From sequence record PP400778: DNA of 64,000 nucleotides. One strand, 5' to 3'. The notes under the pieces are model-generated. The model was not told where the DNA came from, searched no databases, and saw only the letters and a program-made list of their open reading frames with translations. Positions 1,447-59,982 of the stretch are shown piece after piece. Made by a program: the position numbers and the translations under genes. Source of the DNA: Escherichia phage FL15. The first letter of the stretch is position 1. Every line of letters begins with the position of its first letter.

Positions 1447-1475
1447 ATTATACACTATTGCGTTACGCTGTCAAC
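1447..1475 (-). promoter_or_regulatory. sigma70-type early promoter (TTGACA-17-TATAAT)
   Basis: Minus strand TTGACA (1470-1475), 17-nt spacer, TATAAT (1447-1452), followed by conserved leader ATCGAAACAAAGAGAGGA. Confidence 0.6.
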
Positions 1476-2642
1476 TCTTTTTCAAAAGATTTTACGATAT
1501 ACATGATGGTGCTCAATTCGGACGGCGCTACTGTCTCTGTGTAGCCATCCGGCATATCTTCTTTCGAGATATAGGAAGTTTTACCTTTCATTACTTCCTT
1601 GATTTTGTTCTCTAATTCTAAGATCTTTTGACCGTCTTGTAAAGTCAATTCATAAAAGATCTCATGATCGAACTTTGAAACACGAGATTGGTTTCTCATG
1701 CGCTCATGTGTTTCTTTGTTTGTTATTCCAAATTTCACGCCAACAAAGGAATCATTGTTGGTTAATTTCTGTATATAAAGAGTTCCTGTCTTTAATGCCT
1801 GATAACCATGCTTAGAACACAACGGGCAGCGTGTTCCGCGATTAACAAAATTATCAATAGTTACATCCCATTCATGGTTACGTTCGCATGTCAGAAGTAT
1901 TCTTGTTAATGCACCTTTCCACTTTCCTGAAATCCCAATAAATTTTAGTCTGTTGGTTTCGCATATTTTTTTCAATTTGTTTTAATCGGTCACTTTTTGT
2001 TATTGGTGCTGTTCCGCTACATTTGCGACACCGACGACCTAGTTTGAACTTATCATAACTTTGTTCGTAAATGTGATTATTAGGACACTCAAATTTAAGT
2101 TTAGTTTTTGTTCCTCTCCATTCCCCAATTATACCCAAAAATTTATAATCTCCTTTATTTTCATTTATATAAGATAAGGAATCTTCTTTATCATGCATCT
2201 TGCCCCCGTTACATAAAGGACATCTTGTTTTTTGATGAATGAAATCTGTATATGTTGGTTGGTATGTGTGTCCGTTTGTACAGTTCATAATGAGTCTTGT
2301 TCTGCTATTTTTATACTCCCCACCAACAAAACCAACAAATACATCGTTTGTTTCTTGTTTTATTCTTTCTATCACATTGTTTGGGTTTAATCTTTGAGAA
2401 TCAACCACACATTTCTTACACGAAACGTTTTTCCTGATATTTGCTAGAGTTGATGTGTATTCATGCTTGTTATTACATAATATAAGAGCTTTTGTTTTGA
2501 GACCAGACCATTCTCCAACAAACCCCATGAAAGAATAACCAACTTCCAAACATGAATTTTTTACAACATTTTCCCAATAGAAGGGAGTTTTCGTGTTTCC
2601 TTTTATTTCTATACTAATCTCATGTGCTTGACGTACTAACAT
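1463..2642 (-). CDS. protein with four tandem ~65-aa Cys/His zinc-ribbon-like repeats, interrupted by a frameshift in an A7 run (ORFs 1878..2642 and 1463..1975)
   Basis: Repeats G-[FI]-x-G-x-W-x-G-x-x-T-[KR]...C-x3-H...C-x2-C occur 3x in the upstream ORF and 1x in the overlapping downstream ORF; linker lengths match only if one A is removed from the A7 run (plus T7 at 1966-1972). Start ATG 2642 has a GGAGGA SD. Confidence 0.55.
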
Positions 2643-5615: not shown

Positions 5616-6563
5616 TTAGAACTCACCAATTTTCTGCAACATTTTAACTAACGCATTTGTTACAAAATAGTTATAAATTTTACCGCGTGGCGCTGGTTTA
5701 GATTTTTCCCATGCTAACAAAATTTCATATTCGATGTTATCAGGAATAAATTCAAAATCAATAAGTTCGCGGTTTTCGTCAAAGCGTCGTGCTTCTTCCT
5801 CTGTCATCAAAGACTTTGGATCTTTGGCATCGAAAATTTGCTCTAACCATTTGGTTGCAATTGGTTTAGCTCGTTCTCCTTCCAGTCGTGAGATAATGAA
5901 ATCACTACGGCACTTGATCGAAGCTACACCGTCTTTTGCGTCACCCTTAACACATTTTACCATAAGGTCTTTGTAAGGGCTACCATATTTGCATTTCTTC
6001 CATGCTTTCTGTACTGGCGCCCACTGTTTCACATTTTTGTATTTGTGCAACTGTGTGTAGTCACCATCGCCGGAGTTGATCAGCACCTGGCGACCTTCGA
6101 CAGAAAACTTTTTAGTTAACACAGCGATTATATCATCCGCTTCAACTTTGTCAACCTTAATAACGTGATAAGGCATGTTCTCTTTAAACTCTTCGGTGAT
6201 CTTATTGATCGCAGCAAAAATCATCTCCCAATCACGCGGATCTGCGTCTCGTTTTTCCTTACGGTTGCGTTTATAGTAAGGTGCGATATCACGTCGCCAG
6301 TAACCTTTGCTTGAATCAAAGGCAAGTACCGTAATTGGGTATTGCTCTTTGAATTTTGTCATATTATAACGCATGGTGTCAAGGATAAGATGACGGATCA
6401 TGCCTTCATTAATAGGGTCTTCCGGTTTAAAGGTATGCGAGATAGTAGCAATCATAAGCTGCGACATATCAATCAAATGCACACCTTCCGGTAGTTTATC
6501 TTCTGGATCATCAAAGAAATCATTAAGTGTAGCGGTAGTTTTTGTAAACGGGTTATACGTCAT
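5616..6563 (-). CDS. rnh: RNase H / 5'-3' flap exonuclease
   Basis: 315 aa; matches T4 RNase H (GYWRRD, YYK.NR, VEADD.IAVL, SGDGD.TQLHKY.NVKQW, PRGKIY.YFV). Confidence 0.95.
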   Translation of the reverse strand: MTYNPFTKTTATLNDFFDDPEDKLPEGVHLIDMSQLMIATISHTFKPEDPINEGMIRHLILDTMRYNMTKFKEQYPITVLAFDSSKGYWRRDIAPYYKRNRKEKRDADPRDWEMIFAAINKITEEFKENMPYHVIKVDKVEADDIIAVLTKKFSVEGRQVLINSGDGDYTQLHKYKNVKQWAPVQKAWKKCKYGSPYKDLMVKCVKGDAKDGVASIKCRSDFIISRLEGERAKPIATKWLEQIFDAKDPKSLMTEEEARRFDENRELIDFEFIPDNIEYEILLAWEKSKPAPRGKIYNYFVTNALVKMLQKIGEF

Positions 6564-14049: not shown

Positions 14050-16809
14050 ATGGCAGATTTACAGAGAATCCAATTTAAAAGAACAAGTACGGCAGGTCGC
14101 AAGCCGGATGCGAATATTCTAACTCCGGGTGAACTTGCTATTAACCTAGCGGATCGAAAACTATATACAAAAGATGACAGCAATAATGTAATTACTTTGG
14201 GACACTTTCGCGGTGAGTTGCCATCTGATGCAAATTTAGATAATTATGGACCTACTGGTAAATTTACTGGCGTTTGGTCTAAATCAAGTTCAACAAATGC
14301 GCAGCCAGCAAATAAATTCCCAGAAGCGAATGCTGTAGGTGTATTAGAAGTATTTGTGGCTGGTCAATTTGCTGGCAGTCAGCGTTATACTGTTAGATCT
14401 GGTAACGTTTATATCCGTTCTTTGTCTGCGAAATGGAATGGTGTAGATGGTCCATGGGGTCCGTGGCTCAATATTCAAAATGGCACACGTCCACTATCAA
14501 CTACACTAGACTTGAATACTTTAGGTGATGCTTCTCATTTTGGGTTATGGCGAAATAGTTCAAGTTCCATTGCATCATTTTCTCGAAATTACCCAGAAGA
14601 AGGTGGTCTCGCGCAAGGTCTTTTAGAAATTTATGAAGGTGGTAACTATTCTTGCACGCAACGTTATACTACCCGAATGGGTGTTGTATATGTTCGTTGT
14701 CTTGCAGGTGCATGGGATCCAGAAGCTCCGAATTGGGGACCGTGGCAACAAGTAGGTATGGTTACTCCCAGCACATTCTATGACGGGGATCTTAATAATT
14801 TTCGTTCTCCTGGCTTGTATAACATTTTAGGGACTGATGCCGTTATTAACCGTCCAGTTGCAGAAGGTGTTCCGGTTGAGATGACCGGATTGCTTGAGGT
14901 TAAACAGCGTGCTTCCGGTGGCGCTATTTTCCAACGTTTCACTACCGCAGGAACGGGTGCAACTACGCGATCTCGCGTGTTTGAACGTGCAATGACAAAT
15001 AATATCTGGGGAAATTGGTACGAAGTATATACGTCCTATTCTATGCCAATTACTTTGGGTATGGGTGGTGTTAAAACTCAATTAGCGGAGCTAGATTGGC
15101 AAACATTTGATTTTGTTCCTGGTAGTATGTTTAGCGTTCCTTTGAACAAAATAAAGAACATGCCAGCAAATATGAATTGGGGTACGATTGACGGAGACTT
15201 GGTTATGTTTTCTGTCGGTCCTAGCGAACACACTGGCACAGGACGTACTGTTCAGGTTTGGCGTGGTACTGTATCCCAGACAAACTACCGTTATTTTGTC
15301 GTTCGTGTGTTCGGTAATTCTGGAAATAGAACTTGCACAGTTCGCCGTGTTGTTCTTGAAGATGGATCACATACTTGGACTGCTCAACAAAACTTTAGGG
15401 GATTGTTGAATATCACTGCTGCTGTTAATCTTGGTGCTAATCAGAAAATTTCACTTGCTCCAGGAGCATATATTCAAGCCCCTGCTAGCGGTTCTGGTTC
15501 TAATACTTACGCGAATCAGAATACTACCATTGCACCATTATATCAGGCCATTGACGATTCAAATAAAAACCAGTTTGCGCCAATTGTTAAACAGAAAAAC
15601 ACTGTAACAAATATTACTATGGCTTCTGGTATGGATATTGCTAGTTCAGAATATCGTATCGTTGCTCAGGGTGATTTATCCGCTACTGGAACTACAGCCA
15701 CTGAATTAGCTACATGGCGTTTCTTGCCGTCTGGCCGATTCATGTCACAAAGCCGAGTTTATGCTGGCGCAGCATTCTTGAACACTGATGGTAACATTGC
15801 TGGTTCAATCTGGAAGAAATACAACGATGCAACCAATTTAGATGCTGCCTTGAATACTCGCCTAGGTAAAGGCGGTGATACGATGACAGGTCGGTTAACA
15901 ATCAATGCACCTAATGATTCTATCGTATTATCAACAACTGCTAGTAATTCTTTGCATATTCGCGGTGACATAGACGGGACTGGTAACTGGTATATTGGCA
16001 AGGGTGGTGCTGATAATGGATTAGCGTTCTATAGTTATGCTACTAATGCTGCTGTAAACATTACAAACGCGGGGGATATCGCTCTAAGTCCAAAAGGCAT
16101 CGAAATGACTCATGTCAATAACGTTCGATTCTATGTTCATGGTGAACGTTGGACTGCTAGCCAATCTGGAGGTTGGAACGACCAATGGGGATTAGAAGCT
16201 CCGATATTTGTTGACCACGGCTATGTTGGACCAGACAGTTATTATCCGATTATCAAAGGAAGAAGTTTAATCACCAATCAAGGATATACAACTGCCGTCG
16301 ATTTTGGTCTACGTCGTGTCCCTAACAATTGGGGGCAAGCAATTATTCGTGTTGGATCTGCGGAAAACTCGCCAGCGGCTGGTCATCCTCAAGCTGTATT
16401 CGAGTTCCATCATGATGGTACTTTCTATTCTCCAGGTAATGGTAACTTTAACGATGTGTATATTCGTTCCGATGGTCGTCTTAAGATTAATAAAAAAGAG
16501 CTAGAAAACGGAGCACTTGAAAAAGTATGTCGACTGAAAGTTTATATTTACGATAAAGTTAAGTCTATTAAAGACCGTAGTGTTATTAAACGTGAAGTTG
16601 GTATTATTGCTCAGGACCTTGAAAAGGAATTACCGGAAGCTGTATCTAAAGTTGAAGTTGATGGATCTGATGTTCTGACAATTTCTAACTCTGCAGTGAA
16701 TGCTCTTTTAATTAAGGCTATTCAGGAAATGAGTGAAGAAATTAAAGAATTGAAAACGCCTCTCTTTACTAAAATTGCTCGCAAAATTAGTAAATATTTT
16801 AAATTCTAA
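14050..16809 (+). CDS. 37: long tail fibre distal subunit gp37 with C-terminal intramolecular chaperone domain
   Basis: 919 aa; N-terminus MADLQRIQFKRTSTAGRKPDANILTPGELAINLADRKLYTKDDS matches gp37; C-terminal ~100 aa (GIIAQDLEKELPEAV...ISNSAVNALLIKAIQE) resembles S74-type intramolecular chaperone. Confidence 0.9.
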   Translation: MADLQRIQFKRTSTAGRKPDANILTPGELAINLADRKLYTKDDSNNVITLGHFRGELPSDANLDNYGPTGKFTGVWSKSSSTNAQPANKFPEANAVGVLEVFVAGQFAGSQRYTVRSGNVYIRSLSAKWNGVDGPWGPWLNIQNGTRPLSTTLDLNTLGDASHFGLWRNSSSSIASFSRNYPEEGGLAQGLLEIYEGGNYSCTQRYTTRMGVVYVRCLAGAWDPEAPNWGPWQQVGMVTPSTFYDGDLNNFRSPGLYNILGTDAVINRPVAEGVPVEMTGLLEVKQRASGGAIFQRFTTAGTGATTRSRVFERAMTNNIWGNWYEVYTSYSMPITLGMGGVKTQLAELDWQTFDFVPGSMFSVPLNKIKNMPANMNWGTIDGDLVMFSVGPSEHTGTGRTVQVWRGTVSQTNYRYFVVRVFGNSGNRTCTVRRVVLEDGSHTWTAQQNFRGLLNITAAVNLGANQKISLAPGAYIQAPASGSGSNTYANQNTTIAPLYQAIDDSNKNQFAPIVKQKNTVTNITMASGMDIASSEYRIVAQGDLSATGTTATELATWRFLPSGRFMSQSRVYAGAAFLNTDGNIAGSIWKKYNDATNLDAALNTRLGKGGDTMTGRLTINAPNDSIVLSTTASNSLHIRGDIDGTGNWYIGKGGADNGLAFYSYATNAAVNITNAGDIALSPKGIEMTHVNNVRFYVHGERWTASQSGGWNDQWGLEAPIFVDHGYVGPDSYYPIIKGRSLITNQGYTTAVDFGLRRVPNNWGQAIIRVGSAENSPAAGHPQAVFEFHHDGTFYSPGNGNFNDVYIRSDGRLKINKKELENGALEKVCRLKVYIYDKVKSIKDRSVIKREVGIIAQDLEKELPEAVSKVEVDGSDVLTISNSAVNALLIKAIQEMSEEIKELKTPLFTKIARKISKYFKF

Positions 16810-16813
16810 CAAC

Positions 16814-16832
16814 AAGGGGCTTTGCCCCCTTT
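16814..16832 (+). terminator. stem-loop after gene 37
   Basis: AAGGGGC-TTTG-CCCCCTT hairpin; weak U-run. Confidence 0.3.
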
Positions 16833-16844
16833 GGAGTATAAATT

Positions 16845-17627
16845 ATGGCAGTAGTTGGAGTTCCTGGCTGGATTGGAAGTTCAGCCGTAAATGAAACGGG
16901 TCAGCGCTGGATGAGTCAAGCGGCTGGTCAATTAAGATTGGGTGTTCCTTGCTGGATGAGTCAATTTTCAGGTCGCTCGCGAGAAATTATTCACACGCTT
17001 GGCGCAGACCATAACTTCAATGGTCAGTGGTTCCGTGATAGATGCTTTGAGGCAGGTAATGCACCTATAGTGTTTAATATTACCGGTGATTTAGTATCAT
17101 ATTCTAAAGATGTTCCTTTATTCTTCATGTACGGAGATACACCAAATGAATATGTTCAGTTGAATATACATGGCGTAACGATGTATGGTCGTGGCGGGAA
17201 TGGCGGTAGCAATGGTCCTGGATCAGCCGGGGGGCATTGTATTCAAAATGATATTGGTGGGAGACTAAGAATTAATAATGGTGGAGCTATTGCAGGTGGC
17301 GGTGGCGGTGGCGGTGGCGGGTATTATTCTCCTTTTTCACAAATGAGATTAACCTTTGGCGGTGGCGGTGGGCGTCCGTTTGGTGCGCCCGGCGGATCTA
17401 TTGATATGCAATCAGGCGCAACTGCTGGTACTCTTTATGCGCCCGGATCGGGGTCCGTGAACGGTGTCTATAATGGCGGAAGCGGTGGTGAGGTAGGTGC
17501 TGCGGGAGGTAGATGTAATATTCGTGGTCAAGGATCTGAATATAATGGCGGCGATTCTGGATATGCTGTTATAGGGTCTTCTCCAACGTGGCAAAATCGC
17601 GGAGCTATTTACGGACCGGCTGTTTAG
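16845..17627 (+). CDS. 38: T2-type receptor-binding adhesin gp38 (glycine-rich motifs)
   Basis: 260 aa; N-terminus [15 protein letters not shown] and multiple poly-Gly islands separating variable segments are the T2/T6-type gp38 architecture. Confidence 0.85.
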
Positions 17628-17690
17628 ATGTAATTATAAAAAGAATTAAGGAAACCTCCCACGGAAGGGAACTACTAAGGAGAAACGGCT

Positions 17691-30191: not shown

Positions 30192-30199
30192 AACTTTTT

Positions 30200-30499
30200 T
30201 TAATCTTTTTTCAGTGCGTCCATTACTCGCTCTGCGATCAGTTCTCGTAAGCACTGATAACCATGATATTTGATGGCAATGTCACGCAGATCATTAACCA
30301 GTTCCCGTACTTCATGGTCTTTCAGATCGTCTCTGTATTTCGATTTAATCGTATCTTTAGGTGGATTGCGGATAACCTGAAAACCTTGTTCTGCAATCAC
30401 TGCGGCTTCTCGCTGGCGTTCATGCTGTACTGTATTTTTGATCAGGTCTACTTCCATGAACTTTGTCATACTCATCATCATGTTATTCTTTTTGATCAT
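30200..30499 (-). CDS. hypothetical protein
   Basis: 99-aa ORF with GAGGA SD. Confidence 0.5.
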   Translation of the reverse strand: MIKKNNMMMSMTKFMEVDLIKNTVQHERQREAAVIAEQGFQVIRNPPKDTIKSKYRDDLKDHEVRELVNDLRDIAIKYHGYQCLRELIAERVMDALKKD

Positions 30500-30533
30500 T
30501 ATTCAATCCTCATAAAAGAAAAGGGAGACTCCC

Positions 30534-30561
30534 ATTATAGAGAATCTCCCTTGTATGTCAA
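30534..30561 (-). promoter_or_regulatory. sigma70-type early promoter (TTGACA-16-TATAAT)
   Basis: Minus strand TTGACA (30556-30561) and TATAAT (30534-30539) with GGGAGA...TCTCCC inverted repeats around the -10. Confidence 0.5.
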
Positions 30562-39329: not shown

Positions 39330-39506
39330 CTAAGCACCGTCTTTCTCCTTTTTGCGTTTTTCTTTACCCGCTACACTAGGTCCACGATTGGTAATAGATC
39401 CGCTCGTTTCACCTGCTGCGATCTTCTCAGGATTGCCGCCAGCATCGCCAGCGGTCATATCTTCTTTGAGTTTATTTTCTTCAACAAACTGTTTAAATCC
39501 AATCAT
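39330..39506 (-). CDS. hypothetical small protein (58 aa)
   Basis: Below track cutoff; ATG overlaps the stop of the 39503-39787 ORF (ATGA); basic C-terminus. Confidence 0.4.
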   Translation of the reverse strand: MIGFKQFVEENKLKEDMTAGDAGGNPEKIAAGETSGSITNRGPSVAGKEKRKKEKDGA

Positions 39507-39787
39507 AGAATAATCTCTTTCAGTAAGTCAACAATCTGGTCTTTCGTCAGTTTATCCTGATCCTCTACAATCTTGATAACACAAGCATTAACATCTTTTC
39601 GAGTCACGCGGGAGATCGTTTTAATACGATGAAACGGTTCGTAGAAATATACTGCTTCATTATAGGTCGCAGCAATTTTTTGACGCATTTGATCTTTATC
39701 GGCCATAAAAACAATTGCAATTTTCGGATCTACACCAGCCACATCATAAAGTTCGGCGACTCCCCAGCGTCCTCCCGGTTCAATCAT
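39503..39787 (-). CDS. hypothetical protein
   Basis: 94-aa ORF; a 30-aa ORF in another frame ends on its ATG, so a frameshifted longer gene cannot be excluded. Confidence 0.45.
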   Translation of the reverse strand: MIEPGGRWGVAELYDVAGVDPKIAIVFMADKDQMRQKIAATYNEAVYFYEPFHRIKTISRVTRKDVNACVIKIVEDQDKLTKDQIVDLLKEIIL

Positions 39788-39906
39788 CCCAGCGTGTTTA
39801 CCGTTAATAAAGATAAGATGTCTCCGTTATTTGCGGTTTTAAATGCTACATCTTCCGGCGTAATCATATTCTTCATAATATCGTCTCCTTAGAGTTTCAT
39901 TATAGA

Positions 39907-57399: not shown

Positions 57400-57657
57400 A
57401 ATCGCCCTCAGTTCTTTATAGCCTCCAATGTGCTCGTTGTCAATGAATATCTGGGGGTATACAAACCGGAGGCTCTTTGAGTTTAGCCTCCCCGCCAGTT
57501 CTTCAATCATATCACGGTCGGGAATAATGTCAACCCCGACCTGCTTGAATACTGGTTTAAGTGTATACGGAATACCCAGATCATCCAGTAGCTTCATTGC
57601 ACTAATACAACCATAACAATGATAAGCCTCTTTCGGTATACCGTATATCTCGATCAT
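57388..57657 (-). CDS. nrdH: NrdH-like glutaredoxin
   Basis: 89 aa; thioredoxin-fold pattern with CYGC redox motif near the N-terminus; T4 nrdH position. Confidence 0.8.
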   Translation of the reverse strand: MIEIYGIPKEAYHCYGCISAMKLLDDLGIPYTLKPVFKQVGVDIIPDRDMIEELAGRLNSKSLRFVYPQIFIDNEHIGGYKELRAIYDY

Positions 57658-58138
57658 TTCTCAGCCTTTAATCTTTCTAGTTCTTCTTCCAGTTCCTTAA
57701 TGCGCTTCTCGCGTTCAATATCACGTTGGATCTTAGTGGCGAATACTCGTTTAAACTGATTATAGTCATCAATTTTAAATACTTCCTCTTCACCGTATCG
57801 ACGTACAGAAACTTCGTAGTTGTTGAAAAATTGTTCCAACATTGCATCAGTGGTCAGTTCTGCCGATACCACTTTAAAATGACGTTCTTCTGATTGCAAA
57901 AACCAGTTGTGCGCGTATTCCCGTACATCATCAACATTGCGGCAGGTGTATACCGTGCCATCAATTTCAATCGCAGAAACATAATCAACATCCGATGCAT
58001 GGTGATCAAATGCGATAACTTTAAATGGACGGTCGCCTATAAACTCTGCTATTGCATCATTTACAACGCTAAAGTTTGCAAAATCTTCTCTCGTTTTCTT
58101 ATCTTTCCACTGATAGGTCACGCCAGCAACAAACATAT
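57654..58138 (-). CDS. member of tandem paralog family (WxD N-domain + coiled-coil tail)
   Basis: Start MFVAGVTYQWKDKK (GAGGA SD); N-domain aligns with neighbours (TYxW+D ... DRPF ... IEIDG ... +FF.EV); Glu/Lys-rich C-terminus. Confidence 0.6.
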
Positions 58139-58962
58139 TACCATCCTCGCTCTTTACCAATCAAAAATTCAACTTCACGACGTTTAATGTCTTCTTGAAG
58201 GTCTTTAATCTTCTGTCGGTCTTGCATGATTTCATCCATCTTGTCAAGTGCCGCAATGAAATCATCGAAACGTTCAAAGGTTTTACCTTCATTTGCTTCG
58301 CCAAATTTAACCATTGTCAGGCCGTAACGACTACTAAACAGACGTTTCAACTGTCCAACGATTTTAGAATCAGTGGTTATAACTTCCAATTCTTCTACTT
58401 CACGAAAGAATTTTCTATCAGAATCAATAAACCAGCTAGTTCCTTTATGGTCTCTATCTTCGGTTGCGCTCATTAGAGTATGGTCTTTACCATCAATTTC
58501 AATTACATCAATTTGCCCACATGGACTAACATTTTTAACAGTAAAAGGTCTATAATTTATTGCTCGTGCAATAACATAATTAAGGTTAGATACGTTTTCA
58601 GCATAATGACAGAAGTCGGTCATAGCATTCGCATCTTTCCAAGTATAAGTTTTACCAACTTCCCATTTCTGGGGAACTTCTTCAACTTCACGAAAGAATT
58701 TTCTATCGAATGGACTAAAGAAATATGTTGCAGTCCAAATGTCTTTTCCTGTAGCAGTTTTCGCCGTATGATAAACACCGTCTAGCTCTATTGCATCAAT
58801 CCAACCGTTACTCTCGATCTCGATGATGGTAAATGGCTTGTCACCAATAGCTGCACTGATATCGCTGTTAAGTGGAGAAAGAACACCTTCTCCGTTAGTA
58901 ATAAACTCAGTTTTAGCGTTTTCATCTCTCCAAGTGTAAGTTTTACCAATTTCCCATTTCAT
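58138..58962 (-). CDS. member of tandem paralog family carrying two N-domain copies
   Basis: 274 aa; MKWEIGKTYTWRD...DRKFFREVEE repeated as KWEVGKTYTWKD...DRKFFREVEE, then a helical tail. Confidence 0.65.
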   Translation of the reverse strand: MKWEIGKTYTWRDENAKTEFITNGEGVLSPLNSDISAAIGDKPFTIIEIESNGWIDAIELDGVYHTAKTATGKDIWTATYFFSPFDRKFFREVEEVPQKWEVGKTYTWKDANAMTDFCHYAENVSNLNYVIARAINYRPFTVKNVSPCGQIDVIEIDGKDHTLMSATEDRDHKGTSWFIDSDRKFFREVEELEVITTDSKIVGQLKRLFSSRYGLTMVKFGEANEGKTFERFDDFIAALDKMDEIMQDRQKIKDLQEDIKRREVEFLIGKERGW

Positions 58963-58974
58963 AATATATTCCCC

Positions 58975-59440
58975 TTAACCGATTTTATCAAGTTCGTTTA
59001 ATGCTTTCTCAGCTTCCTGTATAGCTTGCACTCTTTCCGGCATTTTGTCAAGAAAATCTTTCAACTCTTCAAAACTGGAGATATGACGCAAGGCGTTAGC
59101 ACCGATAGCCGCATGTGATTTGCATTCAAAGCGGATTTTATAATTATCCATCGCCAATTTGAGAAGATCAATTAATTTAGATTCTTCTGGAATAATAATT
59201 TCTTCAAATCTGCTACGGTCATGATCCAGAAACCAACAAGATAGACCTACATCGGTTGAACTCATATAAGTTCCATCATGAAGATAAACAGACCGCACGT
59301 ATCCTTTTTTTCGCATCAACCGACGCAACTTTAAACGGTAATCGCAGATATTTCAAATAATCAACATCATACCATTTAAAAAATTGGTTTGCATCTTTTA
59401 CATCTTTCCACGCATAGGTCTTACCAGCTTCCCATTTCAT
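58975..59440 (-). pseudogene. member of tandem paralog family interrupted by a frameshift at an A7 run
   Basis: N-domain start MKWEAGKTYAWKD (ATG 59440) is in a different frame from the rest (58975-59328); frames join at the A7 run (plus T7 59305-59311) and would be continuous with one fewer A. Confidence 0.55.
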
Positions 59441-59444
59441 AATA

Positions 59445-59972
59445 TCATCTCTCATTTTTGATACGTGATTCTAATTGGATCATACGGTCGCGCGTTTGTT
59501 TGTATTCTCGGATAGCACCGATCCGGCTAGGCATACCATCCAGTACGCTCTTAATACCTTCTAGGGTAGTAATTTTGGCAATGCTATTATGTAACCCCAT
59601 CTTATCGATCAACTGAATGTCGTAGGCTTCCATAAGCAGACCCAGGCGTTCTAAAGTTAGGTCTTCTTCTTTTTCTTCCGAATCTGGAATCTTAGGTTCA
59701 ATAGCAACTTCGGTAAAGAAACGACGCTCACCCGACCAAAACCACACACCGGAACAGCCAATAGGGGATTCTTTTAACGTCATAGAGTCGAAATTACTAC
59801 CAATAATAGTAATTTCTCTAACATCACCATCATCGTCAAGGTCTTCTACCCTAAACGGGCGACCAGCCAACAAGTCAACAATACATCTGTTAATAGACGA
59901 CGAAAATTTAGTAAGTTCGGCTTTCGACGCTTCGCATTCAATCTTGTAAGTTTTACCAACTTCCCATTCCAT
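59445..59972 (-). CDS. member of tandem paralog family
   Basis: Start MEWEVGKTYK with GAGGTG SD; same N-domain and helical C-terminal tail. Confidence 0.65.
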   Translation of the reverse strand: MEWEVGKTYKIECEASKAELTKFSSSINRCIVDLLAGRPFRVEDLDDDGDVREITIIGSNFDSMTLKESPIGCSGVWFWSGERRFFTEVAIEPKIPDSEEKEEDLTLERLGLLMEAYDIQLIDKMGLHNSIAKITTLEGIKSVLDGMPSRIGAIREYKQTRDRMIQLESRIKNER

Positions 59973-59982
59973 AATAATCACC

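Follow-up and report, generated by a model that had tools for sequence, protein, structure and literature searches.

Why is a gene that related phages read in one frame divided between two frames in Escherichia phage FL15, and is the homopolymer at which the frames switch a programmed site, a sequencing error or a mutation? We analysed this locus in a window of 64,000 nucleotides (sequence record PP400778) of the 164,755 bp FL15 genome. Megablast of the window assigned FL15 to Krischvirus, a genus of T4-type coliphages resembling RB49, with kaaroe as the best GenBank match (98.5% identical). The complete disrupted gene, the orthologue of RB49ORF050c, lies on the minus strand at 58975–59440. 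Its N-terminal frame opens with an ATG at 59440, reads MKWEAGKTYAWKD...VASVDAKK and runs for 54 codons to a TGA at 59276–59278, so that the N-terminal fragment (59276–59440) consists of 45 native codons (MKWEAGK...VDAKK), nine out-of-frame codons (RIRAVCLSS) and the stop. The frames switch at an A7 run, seen on the plus strand as T7 at 59305–59311, in the coding context GCG AAAAAAA GG. Beyond the run, the remainder of the protein (GYVRSVYLHDG...NELDKIG) continues in the +1 frame; within this C-terminal frame (58975–59328, minus strand), residues 46–154 of the intact protein are encoded from 59304 to the stop at 58975–58977. In the GenBank annotation of FL15, the N-terminal fragment starts at an upstream ATG (59455) and gives a 59-aa protein (XAO14382.1), and the C-terminal fragment is a 113-aa protein (XAO14381.1). 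The plus-strand ORFs across 58975–59440 were merely short (~30–34 aa) and unsupported. This anatomy had been proposed in an earlier sequence-only reading, in which the N-domain starting at ATG 59440 and the ORF at 58975–59328 were assigned to different frames with the switch at the A7/T7 run, and it was confirmed.

That reading had also claimed that one A fewer would restore a full-length paralogue, and the claim held: removal of one A from the FL15 run yields a protein of 154 aa that is found, with identical sequence, on 188 public contigs. The restored protein matched phrog_5347 (function unknown) from end to end (residues 1–154, E 1.5e-59), and no match was found in Pfam. Alignment of the neighbouring paralogues gave the common invariant residues G6, T8, Y9, P35, F36, G56, F70 and F78, of which those downstream of the run (G56, F70 and F78) are encoded in the second frame. 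Since deletion of one A gives a known protein that matches phrog_5347 along its whole length, and since invariant residues lie in the second frame, the two ORFs are not a chance pairing. The truncated FL15 products, namely the two fragments above and those of the two further disrupted genes described below (XAO14293.1 and XAO14353.1), were each found as an exact sequence on one contig.

The gene is one of four tandem paralogues, all on the minus strand and all matching phrog_5347. The other three are intact: an RB49ORF051c-like gene at 59445–59981, an RB49ORF049c-like gene of 274 aa with a duplicated N-domain at 58138–58962, and an RB49ORF048c-like gene at 57654–58160. The last two also match, weakly, PHROGs labelled GoF, which hints at a distant relationship between the phrog_5347 paralogues and T4 GoF. 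The 274-aa paralogue contains two copies of the N-terminal barrel, and its E-values to PHROGs annotated as 'goF mRNA metabolism modulator' were 1e-9 to 1e-7. A structure model of the intact 154-aa protein predicted an SH3/Tudor-like β-barrel N-domain followed by a helical C-terminal region, with the frameshift falling after residue 45, within the predicted barrel.

We then compared the run among relatives. The orthologue is annotated as one 465-nt (154-aa) CDS in RB49, W115, TB34, kaaroe, phiS, JK32, JSE and Phi1, and the run was read directly as A6 in these phages and in pEJ01. When 71 nt with the run at the centre were used as a query, 28 GenBank records matched, each over 70 bases and none of them exactly (0/28). 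FL15 was the sole A7 found: each of the 28 GenBank phage records that carry this allele lacks one base relative to FL15, and in those inspected the run is A6 and lies within a single ORF. Over the 501 nt of the gene region, the extra A is the only difference between FL15 and TB34. A divergent allele, which reads GAC CGT TGG GGT at the site and has no A-run, is carried by ~30 other Krischvirus records, KMB43 and FL20 among them.

The C-terminal fragment was found in three metagenome/SRA assemblies, one of which proved to be a scaffold gap and two of which had A5 at the same run. These two Logan assemblies (ERR689735 and ERR3588751) are separated by SNPs; in ERR3588751 the A5 is the sole indel relative to RB49 in 3.3 kb, and in the 20-kb surroundings of both contigs all other compared genes were intact. 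Correspondingly, the A5-type N-terminal fragment was present on two contigs and the A7-type on one. Scans for the run with A5 to A8 permitted returned no copy of this allele from IMG/VR, JGI metagenome contigs or GTDB genomes; the scan pattern works on fetched loci, and these three results are uninformative either way. The run is thus A6 in nearly all of the genomes compared, and it has been hit independently in both directions, towards A5 in two SNP-distinct assemblies and towards A7 in FL15.

A companion site at 1966–1972 had been said to need the same correction at the same homopolymer length, and both points were borne out: the two sites are A7 and belong to the seven runs of at least 7 bases in the 64 kb, and one A fewer at the companion site gives a protein of 392 aa. 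The ORFs at 1878–2687 and 1463–1975 are two frames of one endonuclease-like gene (1463–2642, minus strand), in which the frame breaks at codon ~225 (of 392), on the AAA triplet for Lys in KQIEK|ICE, where the coding strand reads ATT GAAAAAAA TATGC. The N-terminal fragment in FL15 has 267 aa (XAO14293.1). The intact 392-aa protein contains four CapR-type zinc-ribbon repeats, matches phrog_681 ('endonuclease') and was present in 6/6 inspected phages (AV108, GoldenSnicker, GEC-3S, G37-3, Skers and Makalu_001). AV108 and FL15 differ at one position in 1351 nt, the extra A. Comparison of orthologous sites, which the sequence-only reading had suggested, therefore gave relatives one base shorter in every case, 28/28 at 59305–59311 and 7/7 at 1966–1972, the inspected ones at the latter site reading GAAAAAAT (A6) except for G37-3. 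At both sites, the change is a one-unit gain in an A run, from A6 to A7, with the relatives intact at 154 and 392 aa respectively. The endonuclease-like gene is flanked by frd and gene 32, in a position where mobile nuclease genes are typically located, and because it is present in just ~7 Krischvirus records it looks mobile or optional. In G37-3, a G-to-A substitution has created an in-frame A7 (ATT AAA AAA ATA) in an otherwise intact gene, showing that an A7 run is tolerated in frame at the equivalent of 1966–1972. Separately, in a 1255-nt Logan contig the endonuclease gene is interrupted at another A6 run (CAT CAA AAA ACA to ...HQKNKMSFM*, A6 to A7).

Could the A7 run be a functional slippery site, at which RNA polymerase loses one A or the ribosome shifts +1 at AAA-AAA-AGG, as a device shared with the endonuclease gene? 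The context has some of the required features. In the 0 frame, a P-site Lys codon prone to slippage is followed in the A site by AGG, a codon produced by the added A and the rarest Arg codon among the phage's own genes (1.33 per thousand), and either a +1 slip of tRNA-Lys or the loss of one A would recreate the wild-type ...AKKGYV... exactly. However, the out-of-frame layout was present in 0/28 relatives, where the protein lies in one frame, and the divergent allele has no run at all, so that the conservation of two frames expected of a programmed frameshift was absent. Furthermore, the A site at 1966–1972 holds the common Asn codon AAT rather than a rare codon, and the 0-frame stop lies nine codons past the shift site instead of at it. 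A stretch of 131 nt surrounding the site showed no significant local RNA structure (z = −1.7), and neither Rfam families nor tRNA genes were found in the window. For bacterial RNA polymerase to slip efficiently, runs of ~8–9 bases or more are needed, and a transcriptional slippage site would be conserved at such a length; the run has 7 bases in FL15 alone and 6, in frame, in the relatives. Avoidance of the AAA-AGG pair was also considered as a signal and set aside as uninformative (0 in 18,050 in-frame codons against ~1.4 expected). Like the yeast Ty1 site (CUU-AGG-C, with a rare A-site codon), FL15 combines a slippery P-site codon with a rare AGG, and its A-run resembles the transcriptional slippage sites of IS elements, which use runs of ~A9; in contrast with these, and with the E. 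coli prfB site (CUU-UGA-C with an upstream SD-like stimulator), it has neither a conserved two-frame architecture nor a stimulator that we could find, and its run is shorter than the known bacterial slippage sites (PMC5009743). Judged by sequence comparison, the lack of conservation largely refutes programmed recoding at the FL15 A7, and we consider such recoding most improbable. Of the shared slippage mechanism offered in the sequence-only reading as one of two explanations, the part that stands is slippage of DNA polymerase at A6 runs; the part that fails is a +1 frameshift at the level of RNA or ribosome, for the reasons of absence from the 28 relatives, a run-less divergent allele and non-significant structure just given.

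The same context may nonetheless allow some incidental rescue. Indels in homonucleotide repeats have been reported to arise ~2.5-fold more often, and to be partly bypassed ~3.4-fold more, per added nucleotide (PMC3812077), and a review treats both rare-codon +1 shifting and 'savior' indels (PMC5009743). Because a slip at AAA-AAA-AGG restores the wild-type protein, and because bypass of repeat indels has been published, a low, incidental output of full-length protein from the A7 template is plausible. The FL15 site is akin to the cases described by Rockah-Shmuel et al. (2013; PMC3812077) in that an A-run favours both the indel and its partial rescue through RNA polymerase or ribosome slippage; it differs from them in that bypass in FL15 is predicted from the AAA-AAA-AGG context alone.

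The other explanation offered in the sequence-only reading was systematic sequencing error, and we therefore listed all indels by comparison of the whole window with kaaroe and TB34. When the 94 kaaroe CDSs were translated against the window, 91 showed no frame disruption, the exceptions being the ORF050c orthologue, the endonuclease-like gene and dc1. A fourth candidate at 30215–30535 was rejected, as the gene is intact and its stop is common to kaaroe and FL20. The dc1 gene (39503–39876, minus strand) carries the third FL15-specific frameshift, between 39818 and 39819, where one T has been lost from GACATTCTT relative to the JSE allele (98.9% identical); the lesion is in a TT dinucleotide, with no long homopolymer, and reduces the 124-aa protein of JSE to a 30-aa product (XAO14353.1). 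In FL20 (PP400781.1), a sister phage processed in the same laboratory with the same pipeline, one frameshift was found in 47.5 kb, an A3-to-A2 change at about 6204–6231 which splits a 90-aa hypothetical gene (the kaaroe_179 orthologue) into two annotated CDSs. The window contains 41 A/T runs of at least 6 bases, of which only the two A7 sites are disrupted; the 39 undisturbed runs include those in the UvsX, DNA polymerase, gp41, gp44, gp45, gp47, gp55 and holin genes. Of the A/T runs in coding sequence, about half fall in accessory genes, so that the restriction of the lesions to accessory genes is a weak test of mutation against error. We also observed that two intergenic A/T runs, at 2727–2733 and 30195–30201, have 7 bases in FL15 and 5 in kaaroe/TB34, the former lying upstream of gene 32 in a stretch annotated as a terminator in relatives.

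An error would mean that the genome is truly A6 at 59305–59311 and 1966–1972, and that the extra A arose in library preparation or in the de novo consensus. Several observations would fit: the A7 is confined to one record; both lesions are in 7-base runs, the longest class in the window, so that two of the three FL15 frameshifts, and two of the seven runs of this length, coincide; and neither gene otherwise differs from its nearest intact allele. Indeed, both lesions are fresh, without further decay, and a consensus error would look alike. Homopolymer miscalls do occur in related public assemblies. In TB34 (OX001802.1), many runs that are T6 in FL15 and kaaroe have contracted to T5, leaving DNA polymerase, UvsX, topoisomerase II and frd in pieces, and this assembly seems to be error-prone in homopolymers. 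As in such TB34-type errors (of the long-read or 454 kind), a one-base change in an A/T run splits each FL15 ORF; the TB34 changes, however, are numerous, mostly contractions and affect essential genes, whereas FL15 has two such sites, both in accessory genes, and was sequenced on the Illumina platform (MiSeq 2x250, Nextera Flex, with CLC de novo assembly; PMC12032242). FL15 thus lacks the combination of a biased platform and a genome-wide excess of lesions reaching into essential genes. The frameshifts in TT (dc1) and A3 (FL20) are at sites that are not error-prone and are not what short-read consensus errors would be expected to give, and independent assemblies carry a real-looking A5 at the very same run within otherwise clean 20-kb contigs. 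MiSeq 2x250 sequencing, moreover, seldom yields a wrong majority call at a 6–7-mer. As FL15 is unlike TB34 and was sequenced on an Illumina platform, a real mutation is likelier than an error. We infer that the A7 is likely to be genuine in the phage stock, with a consensus error as the smaller but appreciable chance. Systematic error as the explanation of both sites is not supported, given the platform, the 39 intact runs and the frameshift in the TT dinucleotide, and we regard a non-systematic consensus error at the two sites as rather unlikely.

The explanation that we favour, and consider probable, is an isolate-specific slipped-strand insertion of one A at the DNA level, in the A6 repeat of a dispensable gene, which is not programmed. 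The A6/A7/A5 distribution, the intact ancestral ORF and the lack of other homopolymer damage in the window were directly observed. According to this explanation, the Lys-Lys codons AAA AAA would have gained one A to become A7 through a Streisinger-type slipped-strand insertion by DNA polymerase at a mononucleotide repeat, and an equivalent event would have occurred in the A6 run of the dispensable endonuclease-like gene at 1966–1972. As the native sequence now ends at residue 45, in the predicted barrel, the gene should be switched off or nearly so, with any residual expression coming from RNA-polymerase slippage or from a +1 ribosomal slip at AAA-AAA-AGG with its rare AGG. The lesion would be fresh, confined to the isolate and located at a mutational hot spot of a non-essential gene; that the RB49ORF050c orthologue is dispensable is suggested by its variable content and its recurrent frameshifts. 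A classical parallel is provided by the frameshift hot spots of T4 rII and the Streisinger slipped-strand model; the rII hot spots were defined by laboratory selection. FL15 resembles them in the gain or loss of a single base in an A run and in the independent recurrence of such changes at one run, and differs from them in that its lesion comes from a natural isolate, in the genome sequence as deposited.

A recent study of T-even phages provides the closest parallel. In T2, T4 and T6, repeats of at least 6 bases (168–191 per genome) were found to be hypermutable by DNA-polymerase slippage, with a mean read-level frequency of ±1 mutants of ~3e-4 and an over-representation of such repeats in hypothetical/accessory genes, and the term 'phage contingency loci' was proposed (Gomez, Barrick & Waters 2025, bioRxiv 10.1101/2025.10.21.683753). 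In the same study, ±1 changes in the agt A-run allowed T2 to escape TgvAB, and an engineered T4 rIIA A6+A reverted at ~10,000 times the frequency seen for a SNP mutant. In comparative sequence, the FL15 sites fit this description: A6 runs have changed by ±1, accessory genes are put in an off state, and one run has been hit repeatedly; as in those loci, the phage is of the T4 type and slippage of DNA polymerase would turn the ORF off, just as the added A does in T4 rIIA. They differ in that the FL15 states (A5, A6 and A7) are known from comparison of isolates alone, and in that the genus (Krischvirus) and the genes are others. Given the precedents set by the A-runs of T2 agt and T4 rIIA, it is conceivable that the A5 and A7 off states have been selected, for example as an escape from a host defence that senses the protein, and that the A-run is a true contingency locus; the same run has been hit both ways (A5 twice and A7 once) with other nearby genes undisrupted. 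However, the off state is present on merely ~3 of roughly 190 or more contigs, a number that a hot spot in a neutral gene could yield, and phrog_5347 has no known phenotype or link to defence. The divergent allele without the run, in addition, argues against selection maintaining the repeat, as far as the sequences tell. We therefore regard selection of the off states as very unlikely. A broader proposal would be that the A6 runs of the GoF-like paralogue and of the endonuclease gene are Krischvirus contingency switches, in which A5, A6 and A7 would interconvert fast within each lysate, phages in an off state would gain ground whenever the protein is harmful to them, for instance by triggering a host defence, and A7 would be slightly leaky through a +1 slip at AAA-AAA-AGG. 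This, too, we think quite unlikely. If true, it would bring natural isolates and a new gene family within the idea of phage bet-hedging, and selection, if shown, would imply a conditional cost of the GoF-like phrog_5347 paralogue family.

The 59-aa and 113-aa 'hypothetical proteins' of FL15 are the halves of one gene, and likewise the two endonuclease pieces; such split ORFs should be flagged as frameshifted, or compared with the reads, rather than counted as new small genes or as signals of recoding. The occurrence of A5, A6 and A7 at one run in independent Krischvirus genomes also provides a natural-population illustration of the homopolymer hypermutability of T-even phages. Elsewhere in the window, the distal tail-fibre/adhesin region (about 14155–17637) was strongly divergent from both kaaroe and TB34, which is consistent with the different, Tsx-binding Gp38 adhesin reported for FL15 (PMC12032242).
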